A DNA stretch of 64,000 bases from Eledone cirrhosa (taxonomy: Eukaryota). The position numbers and the translations under genes were made by a program. The notes below the pieces were generated by a model. The model had not been told where the DNA came from, searched no databases, and saw only the letters and a list, made by a program, of their open reading frames with translations. The stretch is from NCBI GenBank assembly GCA_964016885.1, contig OZ024741.1, positions 141,422,001 through 141,486,000 on the forward strand, in the 5' to 3' direction. Shown here in pieces: positions 7,043-61,540 of the stretch. The stretch's first letter is position 1; each line of letters starts with the position of its first letter.

Positions 7043-7247
7043 TAACGAAGGAAATGTGGTAAGGAACCAGGTGGACCATAACGCACCAAAGTACTCAATA
7101 CTTGAGGTAGTAGAGTGGGTAATAGGAACCAGTAAGACCCCGACAGCTGAGCTCAAGCCGTTTCGACGGCTAATTCTGGACTAAATTAGTCCAGAATTAG
7201 CCGTCGAAACGGCTTGAGCTCAGCTGTCGGGGTCTTACTGGTTCCTA
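7043..7247. mobile_element. Short fold-back element (PLE 3'-end derivative, family a) in (TA)n
   Basis: Perfect inverted arms about 7122-7183 / 7186-7247 with an extra tail on the left. Carries the 3' half of an HHR (GAAACGGCT...AGCTGTC). Confidence 0.75.
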
Positions 7248-7534
7248 TATATATATATATATATATATATATATATATATATATATATATATATATATAT
7301 ATATATATATATATATATATATATATATATATATATATATATATATATATATATATATATATATATATATATATATATATATATATATATATATATATAT
7401 ATATATATATATATATATATATATATATATATATATATATATATATATATATATATATATATATATATATATATATATATATATATATGGACTGTAGATT
7501 TGTTTTTGAACTTCTTCCATTATATCTTGACCAA

Positions 7535-7760
7535 GGGAGGTGGATTGGCAGTATCGGTAGAGCGTCGGAGACCATGTTTTTTTAGCATAGAGTTACGTCC
7601 ATTTATGTTCTGAGTTCATATCTCGCTGAGGTTAGCTTTGCCTTTTATCCTAATGGGGTCGATCGAATAAAGTACCAGTTACACACTGGTGTCAATTTAA
7701 TCGACTTTCCCCTCGCCAAAACATTTTGCTGACCTTGTGCCTAAATCAGAAGACATTATA
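7535..7760 (+). mobile_element. tRNA-derived SINE family 1
   Basis: A-box-like tggcagtatcgg, B-box-like gagttcatatc, core gccttttatcctaatggggtcgatcgaataaagtaccag. Confidence 0.75.
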
Positions 7761-8574
7761 TCCTGACCATAATATTCTGTAAATTTATTGATTCAAGAAA
7801 TATTTTTTTTTTATTTTACTTAAAACAAAACGTCTACCAAATGGATAGAGACGCCTATATCCACTTTTATCCGCCAGCACGCGTACTTTACCCGATTATC
7901 CCAACTATTATTTATGAAGGTTGATTGTTATCATGGTCATTTGATTTGGGGCGTATTTATTCGAATTTTCCCCAATTCTTTATATATATATGTGTGTGTG
8001 TGTGTGTGTGTGTGTGTGTGTGTGTGTGTGTGTGTGTGTGTGTGTGTGTGTGTGTGTGTGTGTGTGTGTGTGTGTGTGTGTGTGTGTGTGTGTGTGTGTG
8101 TGTGTATGTAAGTGTGTGTAAGTGTGTGTGGGCGTCACGGGCTACTATAGTTTCCTTCTATCAAATTTACCTCAAAGTTAATGGTCAAATCGAGGATAGA
8201 GTGGAAAACATATGCTGAATATGTGCCATGAATTTCAAGCCACAGAGAAGGAATTTTAGCCAATGGATGAATTAGGGAGGAATCATAATTGGGAAAGAAT
8301 AGTGTATGCTGTGTATATATCAAGTGAAATACTAATGTACCCAACTATAGGATTATATATATCAAATGATATATAATAGACTACATTGTATTTTGTTATA
8401 TATTAAATGAAATGCCAATGTACTCAACGATAATGTACACTGTGTATTTATCAAATAAAATAACTATATACTATATATATATATATATGTATTGTTATAC
8501 TTGGGGAGGGTCATATTTGTATAATATTGCCAGAATTAATAACAGAACACACTCACTGTTTGGTTGGTTTTCGC

Positions 8575-9570
8575 TTCCAAACACCCTAACAATAGACTAA
8601 CTGTATTAGACACAGAACTCTGGATTAACACTATAGACGAGAGAGCCCAAACTCTCCACTCACACTATGCTAAACCTATGGCCTCCAAATACCTGATACT
8701 CAAAAACTCAGCAATGTCCAGTAGTGCTAAGTTTAATATTCTGATCGCAGATTTGGTACGAGTGATGAAGAATGTGTCCCGCATGTGCGACCCAACAGAA
8801 ATGGAAAGACACATCCAACACTTCATCAACCGCATGCAGTTCTCTGGCTACAACCAAAGAGACAGAGTTAGAGTATACGAAGGAGCCATGGAGAAGTATA
8901 AGACCCACATAGAACTGGACATGAAAGAAATTTGCCCATTATACAGGAGCAAATCATGGAATAGCTTAGATAGGGCTAGACATAAGATAGGGAAAGCCAC
9001 CTCATGGTACGACAACCAGAGATACCAGAGTGTCATGTTTGTGGACGCTACCCCCGGAGGGAAATTAGCTAACCAGTGTAGAAAGGCCCTGAGAAAGACC
9101 CACTTAAAAATTAAGGTGGTAGAAAAGCCAGGAACCACCATAAAATCCCTGATTAGCAAAACCTAGCCTTTTAAGAAAACCCACTGTACCAATAGGAAGT
9201 GTATCATATGTAAGGTGAACCCCCGGATAAACTGTAAAACTAGAAACGTATTCTATAGTATAAGATGTACAGAGTGTACTTGCAGAAACATGACAACAAC
9301 ATACATAGGTGAGACAGCTCGTAGCATAGGTGAAAGGATAGACCAACACTGGGGGAACTAAAAGGACGAAAAAACGGGCCAGTACTATACGAACATGCTA
9401 GACAACAACATGACGGTAATATAGACAACATAGAAATTAGAATAATATCTAAACATAGAAATGACCCAGCAGATAGGCAAATCAGAGAGGCCAATGAAAT
9501 AGAAATTAGAAGAAAGAAGGAATGGAATAACAACAACACCCAAACAAACAACACTGACCTAAGAGAAGTA
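8575..9570 (+). pseudogene. PLE RT C-terminal/thumb plus GIY-YIG, disrupted
   Basis: ORF 8564-9166 (VLDTELW, HYAKPMAS, MQFSGY, VMFVDATPGG). Stop at 9164 (TAC>TAG relative to the copy at 1382) and a frameshift near 9355. Confidence 0.85.
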
Positions 9571-58218: not shown

Positions 58219-59129
58219 TTATTAAAAAATAAATCAGTGAATAGGAAATAGCAAAGCGTGGACTTACTTCCTAGCCATTGAAAAAATCACTGCCTCTGTG
58301 TCTTATTGTTCTGCAACCCCATGCATTGAACCACAATGTTTTTAAGACAAAACCTATATATTTGCTAGCATCGATATGCATTTGTTTGTATATATATGTT
58401 ACTAGATATAAATTCTTTATTATATATATATATATATATATATATATATTTGAATTGGCAGTATCGGTAGAAGGTCGGACGCCATGCTATGTATACATAC
58501 ACACACACACATATATATATATATATACGCACACACATATATATATATATAAACACACACATATATATATATACAGACACACATATATATACGCATATAT
58601 ATATACACGCACATATATATATATACGTATATACACACACACATATATATATATATATATACACACATATATATGTGTGTGTGCGTGTGTGTTTGTCTGT
58701 TTTGCTCTTATATAACTCATTTGCACGGGTTAAGTAAATAGTGGCTACATCTGATTAAACTCAACGAACCTGTACTTCATAAGACGTGGGATGGTGAATG
58801 GTGAGGTGTGAGGTGGGGTAGAATGGAGCATGGAAGCTATCTATTTTCAGGTAGGCTGACTAACAACTCAGACATTAATGGCAAAAATAACGTACAATAC
58901 CATTAACTGAAAATAGAAACCTCGACGTAGTTGGCGCAGCAGACATATCGTTTGCTCTTCAGTGTACAGCAAAGATAAATGAATAACTAAATTGATTTCT
59001 GAATACATCTTAGCTGAATGTATTAACACATATCTAATCTGAGAATGTAAGATGGTGTATCTGCTTCATTGATCAATCATCAGTTTCATACGTGCCATAG
59101 TAGTGTGAAGACCTGCAGGATTTATTTAA

Positions 59130-59420
59130 TAGCTGTGCCCGGCTCACGATTGTAAGGTTATGAGTTCGCTTGAGCAAAATACTTTCTTTCCCGTTGCTCC
59201 AGTCGAACCAATAGGAAACATTCATCTGTTGCCTGCATATCAAAGGAACTGCTTTGTTACATTCTGAAAAATGGTGCACCTCTCTGAGGGCTACTTTAAT
59301 GGTGAATATATCTCTGTGTCTGTGAAATACTTAGCCATTTGCATGTAAATTTAACAAGCAGGTTGTAGCGTTAATCAAACAACTAGAACACTCCGCCTCG
59401 AAGCCGTCGGAAGTCCAAAA
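59130..59420 (+). mobile_element. Degenerate SINE family 2 copy
   Basis: cggctcacgattgtaaggttatgagttcg..cgttgctccagtc. Confidence 0.6.
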
Positions 59421-61054
59421 GCACTAAAAATATGCCACAGTATGTTGGAGAGATATGTTTTTAAAATTAGCTTATTATAGCGCTGTGTGTGTGGGGGGGG
59501 TGTATGTGTGTGTTGGATCGTGTGCTTCAGTTGTTCGTACAACTGAACAATTTGATTGTGTAAGCTAGTTTTATTGTTACAATCTAAAGAAAATTGTACA
59601 GCCACATACCTACTGATATCCACAATTCGCATTACATATTTAAAGCTCAATAGGCTTGGCAATACAATGGTAAATCTATGGACCATTGACTGAGTAGTCG
59701 CTATTTTCTAGTAGTACAGAGTATATATATATATATATATATATATATATATATATATGGTGGAAATTAACATGCGAGAGGTACCGGGATCGATGCGCGG
59801 ATTCTCCATGTGTCAAAGTTTCAATTATATATATATATACTATCACAGAAATACAGTGCTAAGTCTATGAACCATTGACTAAGAAGTCGCTGTTTACTGC
59901 TACCATATATATATATATATATATATATATATATATATATATATATATATATATATATATATATATATATATATATATATATGACCACACCATTCAGAAT
60001 TCTTCGTATCAATATTGATATAGTATGAAAAATACTAAAACACATTATTGATATCGTTCTTTACGGATCAGTGGATATCGTTCCAGAAACTTTGAAATGT
60101 TTATCAAGTAAATACCCTACGTGACAGTCCACAGTAGTGAAATATTTATTTAATATTAACCAAGTAATCAGGAGGATCCGTGAAAGTGCGTTATGGTCTG
60201 CGTTGTTAAACATTAGTGAGGCTAGACAGTTCAACGGTGGGATATTTTCTTTTGTGTTTGTAGTGTGTAAATAGGAAATGTGAACATGGGGAGTTAGCAA
60301 AGTCGTTAGAACGTTAAACAGAAGGATTCGCAATATTCGTTCCAGTTCCGTACAATCTGAATTAAAACCTCGTCGATGTCAACATTTCATTTCATCCTTA
60401 CCAGCTCGATAATTAAAGTACCAGTTCAGTATTTGGGTCGATTTCTCTCTCTCTCTCTCTCTCTCTCTCTCTCTCTCTCTCTCTCTCTCTCTCTCTCTCT
60501 CTCTCTCTCTCTCTCTGATATCTGCTATGTTCAGACCCAGAAAGGTTAGCCCCCGATAGATGTAAATATCCAAGAGACGTCTCTTCGATTTCCTAGGGAG
60601 TTAAAGGCCCATGGTTGGAAGAGAAATGGTGAAACGTTTCTGATAGAACCCATCGTCCAGGAGTGACATTTTGTAATTGGCCTATTAATGACGAGAAACG
60701 AAAATAGGGAAATATAAGGAAGGTGTGTCCGACAGCGGTCAGAAAATCAAAGTAATACACTATAGCGAATTGGTCAATTCAAGGAAAAGCAAGATGTTTA
60801 GGTCAGGATAATGGAAGAAGAAATATTTTATAAATATATGTGTGTGTGTATATATATATATATGTGTGTGTGTGTGTGTGTGTGTGTGTGTGTGTGTGTG
60901 TGTGTGTGTGTGTGAGTGTGTGTGTGTGTGTGTGTGTGTGTGTGTGTGTGTGTGTGTGTGTGTGTGTGTGTGTGTGTGTGTGTGCGCGCGTGCGTGTGTG
61001 CGTGTGTGCGTGTGTGTGTGTGTGTGTGTGTGTGTTAGTGTGTGTGGGTGTATA

Positions 61055-61540
61055 CTAGACCTGAAAAATGCGCAAGCTCAAAAGAGACACAGAATGTTAT
61101 AATAAACCTTCAAAAGAGTGGAACTAGAGTTGTTGCTCAAAAATATTGTAATCATTATCTATCATACACTCTGTGGCATCCTTTTATATAAAAAATACTC
61201 ATAATGAACTCAAGACGACACGATAATTGTTTAAGCTAATGTTCAATATCTCATATTAGATGTTTAGTAATGTTTAATGCGAAATGCACTTAAACCGAAT
61301 TCTATATTATAAATTCACTTAAATAAGTATCGTGTCGTCTTGAGTTCGTTATGAGTCTCTTTTTTATAAAAGGATGCCACAGAGTGTACGATAGATAATG
61401 ATTACAGTATTTTTTAGCAACAACTCTAGTCCCACACTTTTGAAGGTTTATTATAACATTCTGTGGCTCTTTTGAGCTTGCGCATTTTTCAGGTCTAGTT
61501 TAATATTTTTTAAGGCAACGCTTGTAATAACTCTAGTTAA
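61055..61540. mobile_element. Fold-back element, about 180-bp arms with an 80-bp spacer
   Basis: 61055-61236 is the reverse complement of 61318-61499. Confidence 0.8.

Follow-up and report, generated by a model that had tools for sequence, protein, structure and literature searches.

Inverted-arm insertions with a one-sided tail at (TA)n repeats in an octopod genome: layout and probable origin from Penelope-like elements

Introduction

EN+ PLEs (Penelope/Poseidon, Neptune, Nematis and Naiad) are found with an inverted 5'-truncated copy and a 30–40 bp tail at one end (PMC8557442, PMC3846280). The formation of the inverted repeats and of the one-sided tail has been called open (PMC8557442, PMC11167929), and self-priming has been proposed for the repeats (PMC3846280). 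PLEs of the Hydra clade, including Hydra-1_Obim from Octopus bimaculoides, have a CxCx5C linker, no CCHH motif and a canonical hammerhead, and insert into (TA)n; one Repbase family of this clade is noted with an inverted truncated copy (PMC8557442). In vitro, the Poseidon element PAc from Anolis cuts and extends both strands, with the tail delimited by two RT start sites. Its template is uncleaved RNA with an AC-rich stem–loop, the RT start site is non-homologous to the target, and the two strands do not differ in start site (PMC11167929).

Shorter repeats have also been linked to PLEs. Opposite-strand pairs of minimal hammerheads 100–700 bp apart in Schistosoma were reported as probable truncated PLEs, together with a U3-A8 core variant (PMC4209133), and non-autonomous PLE derivatives are described (PMC8557442, 10.64898/2026.07.22.740005). 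For PLEs the layout itself is known: arms in inverted orientation, a tail on one side, (TA)n as the target and hammerheads paired on opposite strands. Among DNA elements, HINEs have 12–15 bp subTIRs 38–60 bp from the 3' end, a 3' palindrome and a TT target (PMC4067079).

Layout of the inserts

The window is a 64-kb stretch of Eledone cirrhosa DNA. A sequence-only reading had named 14 inserts in it with outward-facing 3' ends and a tail on one arm only, and the layout is present at 14/14 sites with coordinates within a few nt of those first given (Table 1). Each is an inverted 5'-truncated copy with a one-end tail, as in EN+ PLEs. The arms range from 16 to 877 nt. The tail measures 30–136 nt, against the 40–130 nt first estimated, and exceeds 40 nt in 11/14. 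The short arm carries it in 14867, 20127 and 34292, the long arm in 8491, 37686, 48716, 31498 and 24192. Not every setting is plain (TA)n: 14867 is embedded in (GATA)n and TG/TA repeats, and at 54125 the tail side borders (GT)n. TA-like sequence stands directly outside both arms of 25993 and 48716, not of 24601 or 31897; TSDs are unreadable in (TA)n.

The layout is not random, because an inverted 16-mer partner within 5 kb was found for 15/126 non-simple (TA)n edges, against 0/126 in each of two controls (complement, reverse) and 0.62 on average (maximum 3) with shuffled k-mers. At random positions such a partner occurred in 84/1574 draws. Nine of the 15 matches are named sites, with partners 40–100 nt short of the next simple repeat. 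This edge scan missed five named sites (14867, 25993, 31897, 34292 and 56866). Two unlisted matches, 6942 and 30078, are microsatellite-centred hairpins with ends 4 nt from a short alternating run.

Table 1. Positions of the inserts, their parts and related copies in the window.
Feature	Position	Strand	Parts	Arm identity	Tail (nt)
Family A PLE, half in view	1..2273		RVT_1 E 1.7e-5; end as 8493, 37688, 20129		
Its long arm	2-1345	minus	RT		
Its short inverted arm	1335-2273	plus	GIY-YIG region, 3' UTR; tailless, stops at internal site		
Family A insert 8491	8493..10118		short tailless arm 8493-8577; tail 10060-10118	83/85	59
8491 long arm		plus	RT thumb, EN, 3' UTR, damaged hammerhead 9817		
Family A relative 20127	20129..21059		short arm 20799-20999; tail 21000-21059	199/201	60
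20127 long arm		minus	tailless; EN C-terminus; complete hammerhead 20330		
Family A 3' UTR copy 37686	37688..38346		short tailless arm 37688-37790; long arm; tail 38300-38346	100/103	47
Family B PLE 14867	14866..19412		RT, C-terminal GIY-YIG, CX4CxxC linker, CCHH; tail 14866-14895; short arm 14896-15772; long arm 15773-19412, tailless; hammerheads 15051(-), 19259(+)	846/863	30
Family B solo 3' end	47958..48185	-	tail; hammerhead 48146		
Hydra-like PLE 34292	34294..37541		short arm 37291-37437; tail 37438-37541; hammerheads 34382(-), 37349(+)	146/147	104
34292 long arm		minus	tailless; GIY-YIG 36765-37121; CxCx5C linker		
Family C fold-back 7043	7045..7245		tail 7045-7124; arms 7125-7184, 7186-7245; 1-nt loop	60/60	80
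Family C solo copy	14313..14435	-	tail; second arm absent		
Family C insert 31498	31498..31662		tail 31498-31576; inverted arm 16 nt, 31647-31662	15/16 only	79
Family C solo copy	57335..57458	+	tail		
Family D fold-back 24192	24191..24582		tail 24191-24286; arms ~115 nt; 66-nt loop; hammerhead 24485	110/113	96
Family D fold-back 54125	54126..54551		tail 54126-54225; arms 156 nt; 14-nt loop; hammerhead 54314	149/156	100
Family D extra case	63705..63816		left arm tailless to ~63773; right piece 63778-63816, distal tail only		
Family E fold-back 24601	24601..24788		centred on hammerhead core 24660/24662; tail 24722-24788	60/60	67
Family F fold-back 25993	25993..26676		tail 25993-26128; 1-nt loop; damaged hammerhead 26476/26508	inner 101/102; outer arms 79 nt	136
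Family G fold-back 31897	31896..32098		arms 66 nt; singleton	59/66	68
Family I solo tailless copy	48285..48466	+	internal end site as 48716		
Family I insert 48716	48716..48979		30-nt tailless arm; long arm; tail 48940-48979	29/30	40
Family J solo copy	29521..29700	-	end near internal site		
Family J fold-back 56866	56866..57322		arms 172 nt; 60-nt loop; hammerhead 57140	165/172	37 (about 30-37)
Extra case	38506..39137		partial tandem, 511-nt spacing; internal TAT end; hammerhead-like core 38912		
Extra case	53039..54004		partial tandem; inverted arm 269 nt; 60-nt tail twice; complete hammerhead 53351		
Extra case	57613..58360		215-nt tandem, 2.8 units; internal TATAT end; minus-strand hammerheads		
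Fold-back 61051	61054..61560		arms 196 nt; no clear (TA)n bounding tail; ambiguous	179/196	

Links to coding elements

The inserts had been described as unrelated in sequence, which is overstated: the 14 sites fall into about 10 families, with 8491, 37686 and, more loosely, 20127 in one group, 7043 and 31498 in another, and 24192 and 54125 in a third. Five of the 14 (8491, 14867, 20127, 34292 and 37686) are tied to RT/GIY-YIG elements, with Pfam scores below the curated cut-offs. Both RT and GIY-YIG are found in families A and B, and EN only in 20127 and 34292.

The family A EN follows the thumb at 8543–9570. The EN piece of 20127 matches it at E 5e-19, and 37686 is tied to the family through UTR homology only. 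The tailless ends of family A fall on one nucleotide at 4/4 loci, on the long arm of 20127 and on three others, 85, 103 and 939 nt in length. Donor variants are shared between arms, both arms of 37686 having a private 3-nt insertion; in 8491, similarity is not higher within the locus (97.6%) than between loci (98.8%). For family B, 14867 contains both RT and GIY-YIG in broken form, and most of 88 homologues carry the Pfam label RT and many GIY-YIG.

The 34292 EN piece gives GIY-YIG at E 0.0018. A second region, 41493–43196, also shows the CxCx5C linker by motif reading, and its EN aligns with that of 34292 at E 8e-14. Set against the published Hydra definition, the translations of both have the linker and lack CCHH; both copies are truncated downstream of the DKT and RWK motifs. 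Their placement in the Hydra clade is a putative one, read from motifs rather than from a tree. On the same footing, this octopod window appears to contain PLEs of at least two lineages, one Neptune/Nematis-type and one Hydra-like.

The proposed tie of each cluster to an RT+GIY-YIG element stands for the five inserts above. The nine small inserts are without coding sequence, and within the 64-kb window no autonomous partner was found for them, nor any tie of the small families to the Hydra clade. One family C fragment lies at about 43746–43790, some 550 nt behind a Hydra-like ORF (0/2000 shuffles), and is at most a candidate part of that element.

Hammerheads and recurring ends

Among the named inserts a complete minimal hammerhead is found in six, a damaged one in five (including a U3-A8 form in the long arm of 48716) and a doubtful half in two, 7043 (3' half) and 31498; one, 31897, has none, and neither does the additional fold-back 61051/61054. 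Our own descriptor finds 14 cores in the window, where 100 shuffles gave 0.16 on average; Rfam gave 0 matches at gathering score. All 14 cores read outward, toward the repeat flank, in agreement with the 3' ends having been called outward-facing. EN+ PLEs likewise have a type I hammerhead, sense-oriented, in their terminal repeat.

The outer ends recur within families while the centres do not. Arm lengths and centres vary within families A, C and D. The ends of family D at three loci fall within 12 nt of one another, each locus having its own centre, and D arms are 92–96% alike within a locus against 77–84% between loci. Starts fall within about 20 nt in 5/5 copies of family C and likewise in I/K/L, and both tailless ends of family I are identical. 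Relatives of 48716 lie at 31691–31881, 47369–47499 and 48486–48697. Inserts 24601 and 24192 share one (TA)n tract. Copies of one family differ in centre or lack the second arm, so the fold-back was made at each insertion; the hairpins are not a class of elements moving as hairpins, as had been suggested.

Homology between the tails of different copies is seen in families A, B, C and D and in 53039. Six singletons lack a second full copy of the tail, and what counts as tail there could instead be host DNA; from a random point the next TA tract lies 30–140 nt away in 15.8%. Three second arms consist of tail only: the right piece of 63705..63816, which does not overlap the left and so forms no inverted repeat; the left piece of 38506..39137, the inverted last 15 nt of a 49-nt tail; and an inverted piece at 58303–58341. 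These cases were chosen by eye and then tested, one of them being 15 nt only. The match of 63776–63816 to the distal D tail was equalled by 0 and by 1 of 2000 shuffles (352/2000 in the opposite orientation), and those of 38506 and 58303 by 0/2000 each.

The tailless arm had been said to stop at an internal TA-rich site. A TA-like run of at least 3 nt stands there in 9/14 named inserts and not in the rest. Over 16 junctions, which are not independent (family A is counted three times), a run of 3–7 nt occurs in 10 against 3.0 expected (p ~1e-4), and the other six have 1–2 nt.

Formation of the inserts

We consider it probable, at about 0.7, that the inserts are 5'-truncated copies made by EN+ PLEs through two separate primings on the element RNA. 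An RT/GIY-YIG RNP would nick both strands of (TA)n or a similar tract, and each 3' OH would prime reverse transcription on uncleaved element RNA. One primer would start near the distal RNA end to give the tailed arm, the other at a fixed internal site 30–136 nt upstream to give the tailless arm, often aided by 3–7 nt of pairing between a primer ending in TA and a TA-like stretch of the RNA. The two cDNAs would end early and be joined head-to-head via short homologies or palindromes; overlap on the template would yield an asymmetric fold-back, and lack of overlap a two-piece insert with a tail-only arm. In L1 twin priming, two target ends prime on element RNA to give an inversion, the second primer starting at variable upstream sites and the pieces not overlapping; here, by contrast, the second primer starts at one fixed site and overlap of the arms is usual. 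Two-strand cleavage and the two RT start sites bounding the tail are taken from the in vitro work on another clade (PMC11167929); we infer one priming per strand, the role of microhomology and the joining step.

The inserts resemble EN+ PLEs in their outward 3' ends, one-sided tail, partial tandems, inner-junction palindromes, microsatellite targets and hammerheads near the 3' end, and differ in the long tails and in that many are non-coding and below 500 nt. The AC-rich loops in the tails of families A and B recall PAc, whereas the TA matches at internal ends do not. A PLE origin is very likely for the hammerhead-bearing small inserts, and we infer one for the nine non-coding inserts as a group; 31897, with no PLE mark except its layout, is the least secure. 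In the parts of the published PLE accounts available to us, tails above 40 nt, internal-end TA microhomology of 3–7 nt and tail-only second arms were not found described.

Long tails, TA microhomology and the three tail-only arms favour two RNA primings over snap-back, in which a cDNA primed at the tail folds, copies itself and is then linked at a TA-like site to the other end of the target (a variant, proposed in PMC3846280, has self-priming on an antisense template). The perfect or near-perfect arms with 1–2 nt loops at 7043, 24601, 25993 and 31897 are what folding would give, the microhomology is also compatible with end-joining, and stacked hairpins at the 5' junction of the 41493 element show that the process occurs here, so that some tiny perfect hairpins may be its products. 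As a general account it is unlikely: it cannot give tails on short arms (three coding cases), tail-only arms or solo tailless copies (48285, 29521), and the single-nucleotide ends of family A at four loci also speak against it. An assembly or library fold-back at (TA)n would likewise produce the two perfect hairpins (60/60), but is scarcely credible when 12/14 arm pairs (89–99.5%) differ at one position or more, 25993 has a SINE (26208–26389) in its left arm only and ends recur within families. Very improbable, too, is host repair of cruciform breaks at (TA)n that inverts whatever adjoins the break. It would suit the microsatellite-centred palindromes of apparently unique DNA at 6783–6953, 41403–41482 and 30031–30078, yet leaves family-fixed internal ends, the outward hammerheads of most inserts and tail pieces without a local template unexplained.

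Some small inserts might be DNA elements, either MITEs in TA sites with host DNA taken as the tail or Helentron-derived HINEs; we regard this as quite unlikely. Like HINE/DINE-1 elements and MITEs they are non-coding, with inverted repeats of which one is set in; 31498 and 48716 resemble HINE ends (PMC4067079), the singletons 31897 and 61051 have no hammerhead, and 25993 and 48716 are bordered by TA-like sequence on both sides, as expected of a TIR element inserted at TA. Those elements, however, need fixed subTIRs and both ends, whereas here arms vary and one-ended solo copies occur. Recurring outer ends with varying arm lengths and centres argue against MITEs, a judgement that rests on families rather than singletons, and counting the tail 0/14 inserts are symmetric. 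Homologous tails and outward hammerheads also stand against DNA elements. The arms are at least 30 nt in 13/14, flanked by TA-type repeats rather than TT, and the exception, 31498, is homologous to family C copies that have one end only. Among 94 ORFs of at least 70 aa, none matches transposase, tyrosine recombinase or Helitron families, a weak test in a single window.

The window offers a genomic test by counting: on which arm the tail sits, and in how many inserts the two pieces have no overlap. It holds about 20 such events in 64 kb, which suggests that they possibly make up a large share of octopod short inverted repeats beside (TA)n; a TIR-based annotator could label them MITEs.

Short hammerhead repeats and the tandem array

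The class had been called hidden, which it is not, because opposite-strand hammerhead pairs (PMC4209133) and non-autonomous PLE derivatives (PMC8557442) are already described. It is conceivable, though somewhat doubtful, that octopod genomes hold many SINE-like non-coding PLE RNAs of 120–250 nt, with defined 5' ends near the hammerhead, moved in trans by PLE enzymes and inserted by dual priming, each nicked strand of a (TA)n tract starting from its own fixed position on the RNA and the inner start depending on base pairing. If this is true, tail-only second arms would be a direct genomic record of the priming step and would settle how PLE inverted repeats form. The small inserts recall the short non-coding repeats with type I hammerheads that have been tied to PLEs, namely non-LTR retrozymes and dispersed minimal hammerheads; the available parts of those papers give no account of tail asymmetry or tail-only arms (PMC7229834, PMC4209133, 10.64898/2026.07.22.740005). 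The array at 57613 has one hammerhead in each unit with a complete core in 3/3, and by its sequence would fit the non-LTR retrozyme pattern of 150–400 nt tandem units, each with a type I hammerhead.

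Fold-back layout at (TA)n tracts

The window (33% GC) is rich in (TA)n, (CA)n and SINE-like repeats, and all counts of inserts refer to these 64 kb only. At each of the 14 sites named in the sequence-only reading, alignment of the two halves of the insert gave the claimed outward-facing inverted arms, one of which continues into an unpaired tail. At 25993, where a SINE interrupts one arm, the layout was resolved by added alignments. Across these sites the shortest arms measure 16 nt (31498) and the longest 877 nt (14867); the tails, confined to one arm as proposed, measure 30–136 nt rather than about 40–130 nt. 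The 14 inserts had been called unrelated in sequence and in fact fall into about ten families (see table).

An inverted-repeat scan beside (TA)n within the window, blind to the list of sites, found a partner at 15 of 126 non-simple edges, compared with 0, 0 and 0.62 in three controls. Nine of the 15 matches are named sites, and in all nine the partner stops 40–100 nt before the next repeat. The scan did not recover five of the named sites, and the matches at 6942 and 30078 are hairpins centred on the microsatellite, outside the reach of the model. Over 12 inserts, TA tract length showed no consistent difference by tail side. The sharing of (TA)n tracts by adjoining inserts suggests that the same microsatellite was hit repeatedly by insertion. 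The perfect palindrome is either the product of snap-back by the host or a fold-back centred on a microsatellite, and the two short inverted pairs are possible further cases.

Families and other features of the window
Feature	Positions	Description
Family A	8491, 37686, 1–2273	20127 as relative
Family B	14867, 47958	
Family C	7043, 31498	solos 14313, 57335
Family D	24192, 54125, 63705	
Family I	48716, 48285	
Family J	56866, 29521	
Singletons	24601, 25993, 31897, 34292	
Adjoining inserts	24191–24788, 34294–38346, 48285–48979, 56866–58360	common (TA)n tracts
Palindrome	6783–6953	perfect, 55/55 nt per arm, ~22 TA units at centre, apparently unique DNA; adjoins the 7043 insert on its left
Short inverted pairs	29159–29388, 30031–30078	microsatellite centre, one end flush to (TA)n
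Related short elements	31691–31881, 47369–47499, 48285–48466, 48486–48697, 48746–48979	five, with U3-A8 core variant and similar 5′ starts
Solo hammerhead cores	19959, 30102, 45947, 54646	near simple repeats
Tandem array	49230–52965	~6 units of 611 nt, 96% alike, between (TA)n tracts
SINE-like family	7535–7697, 26208–26389, 33445–34011, 56302–56487, 63162–63569	copies of one family; 26208–26389 breaks the left arm of 25993
Hydra-like PLE	41493–43196	RT and EN broken
5′ junction of 41493	41403–41528	two stacked hairpins: TA-centred palindrome and inverted copy of the element's own first 24 nt
Family C fragment	43746–43790	repeat-rich region, ~550 nt behind the Hydra-like ORF
Cys/His-rich stretch	34990–35560, minus	broken, inside the 34292 element; no Pfam match
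LINE fragments	21650–24100, 25059–25583, 26826–27266	unrelated to the fold-backs; RVT_1 matches at 22932 and 23036, remainder judged by eye

Hammerhead ribozymes and arm polarity

A type I hammerhead descriptor matched 14 cores in the window against 0.16 in 100 local shuffles; requiring a stricter stem I left 12 against 0.03. All 14 cores read toward the flanking repeat, in agreement with the outward polarity first proposed. Because hammerhead orientation fixes polarity independently of the ORFs, the arms can be identified as outward-facing 3′ ends. Among the 14 named inserts the ribozyme is complete in six (14867, 20127, 24192, 34292, 54125, 56866), has stem I broken or absent in four (8491, 37686, 24601, 25993), is a damaged U3-A8 variant at 48716 and is reduced to a doubtful 3′ half at 7043 and 31498; none was found at 31897. 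Relatives of 48716 at 31851 and 47414 pass the descriptor (2 versus 0.1). Relaxing the descriptor yielded 10 cores (1.17 in shuffles), of which 54646 alone was new. Rfam returned no match at gathering score; its E-value scans produced sub-threshold matches, miRNA-like ones among them, with no hammerhead family among the matches listed (best 150 of 237), and two local Rfam scans contained no hammerhead family.

The arms span the hammerhead cleavage site, and the RNA template was therefore uncleaved; uncleaved RNA is also the template in vitro for PAc, the Poseidon element of Anolis (PMC11167929). The solo cores are likely one-ended insertions of further families. The tandem array, with neither a hammerhead nor a convincing Pfam match, was left out.

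Coding links to Penelope-like elements

The proposal that the arms are 3′ ends of elements encoding reverse transcriptase (RT) and GIY-YIG endonuclease (EN) held for five of the 14 named inserts. The 14867 insert carries a broken RT followed at the C-terminus by GIY-YIG, with a CX4CxxC linker and a CCHH motif, and has 88 homologues, bivalve proteins among them. The linker of family A is of the same type, and 20127 retains an EN C-terminus matching family A at 52% over 64 aa. Among named proteins, those nearest to the RT at 2–1345 come from Octopus vulgaris (53–75% identity, part of the query), which suggests an octopod host. GIY-YIG is also retained at 34292, with a CxCx5C linker and without CCHH; the element at 41493–43196 shares this linker type. 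PMC8557442 defines the Hydra clade of Penelope-like elements (PLEs) by the CxCx5C linker and the absence of CCHH, and describes Hydra-1_Obim, from Octopus, with (TA)n targets. Both elements fit this definition, clades being read from motifs rather than from a tree. A homologue search with the 34292 EN as query gave no match.

The family C fragment is a possible link between that tiny family and a coding element. The Cys/His-rich stretch, which we take to resemble a LINE C-terminus, is either nested in the 34292 element or was carried along with it. A scan of prokaryotic genomes found three short contigs (L001–L003, 1.8–2.4 kb) with PLE-like RT/EN in the genome record of a bacterium, where they are probably contamination from an animal; neither long inverted arms nor a clear hammerhead was found in them, a result of little information.

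Outer ends, centres and one-ended copies

Four tailless ends of family A fall on one nucleotide and its three tails end at 47, 59 and 60 nt; family D has its tailless ends within a 12-nt span at three loci, with tail ends at positions 96, 100 and 102. Ends recur in families C and I too. The centres differ among sister copies, and one-ended copies occur both with the tail (14313, 57335, 47958) and without it (48285, 29521). Because the centres vary and one-ended copies exist, the hairpin is an insertion product rather than a mobile unit. Recurring ends, differing centres and one-ended copies also argue against MITEs for these families. No transposase was found in the 94 ORFs of the window, which is weak evidence. 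Asymmetric ITRs of the DIRS type were rejected, as there is no tyrosine recombinase among the 94 ORFs. In six inserts the tail, which occurs in full only once, could be host DNA (15.8% per site), and 31897 and the unlisted 61051 carry no PLE mark besides the layout.

Eight loci have an arm boundary close to the hammerhead core, from 16 nt upstream of it to 1 nt inside, two of these boundaries being pairing limits rather than proven ends. By simple count, 12 of 24 tabulated arms in families other than I, K and L have such a core-adjacent boundary. In the five I/K/L copies the start lies 30–45 nt upstream of the core, and the starts of the five family C pieces fall within ~20 nt. Boundaries and starts of this kind may mark genuine 5′ ends of short RNAs that are non-autonomous, or else sites at which RT stalls.

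Formation of the second arm

The tailless arm had been described as stopping at an internal TA-rich site. An alternating TA run of at least 3 nt is present in the template at the internal end of 10 of 16 junctions (the 14 named, 53039 and 61051, with families repeated in the count) versus 3.0 expected, and missing at six, so that the description applies to part of the inserts. PMC11167929 reports two-strand cleavage and two start sites in vitro for the Poseidon element; we infer that both are at work here, with one start site per strand. The inserts are best read as two RNA-templated primings and joining of the cDNAs. Each nicked strand would prime one synthesis, one at the distal end and the other at the fixed internal site, and the two truncated cDNAs would then be joined; one RNA or two may have served as template.

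Snap-back of a single cDNA may make some tiny perfect hairpins and is seen at the 5′ junction of 41493. It would place the tail on the longer arm, as in 8491, 37686, 48716, 31498 and 24192, but the short arm bears the tail in 14867, 20127 and 34292; the remaining six named inserts have arms of equal length or a loop without readable polarity. In three unlisted inserts (63705–63816, 38506–39137, 57613–58360) the second arm consists of tail sequence alone, the two pieces of 63705–63816 being without any overlap; these arms were spotted by eye and tested afterwards, and one is just 15 nt. An insertion private to 37686 and common to both its arms, together with family D arms that are closer within a locus than between loci, points to one donor per locus, with no within-locus excess of arm similarity at 8491.

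Relation to published elements

Inverted truncated copies, one-sided tails of 30–40 nt, (TA)n targeting and hammerheads are known from PMC8557442 and PMC3846280, non-autonomous PLE derivatives from PMC8557442 and 10.64898/2026.07.22.740005, and opposite-strand hammerhead pairs 100–700 bp apart from PMC4209133. In the accessible parts of these papers and of PMC7229834, PMC8969392, PMC2377424 and PMC4067079, a set with most subscription papers outside its scope, no description was found of tails longer than 40 nt, of tail-only arms or of microhomology to TA where the internal arm starts; Repbase entries and supplements, notably that of PMC11167929, may hold such cases. Of the large hidden class of PLE-made hairpins that had been proposed, the layout stands and the interpretation is partly supported. 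The inserts work like PLE insertions: coding sequence or direct homology assigns five to PLEs, ribozyme or family makes eight probable members, and the remaining one is a possible member. The weight of the finding lies in the mechanistic clue rather than in the layout.

Tail sequence and structure

The tails show no general folding stability (z < −2 in 3/16), the three family A tails have no consensus structure, and two-sided change was found in one of 22 pairs in family C. The motif ACTC-N-GAGT, defined after the tails were seen and thus a lead only, occurs in tails of families C, D and E at seven of nine loci, with 18 matches against a shuffle mean of 5.3 and maximum of 14.
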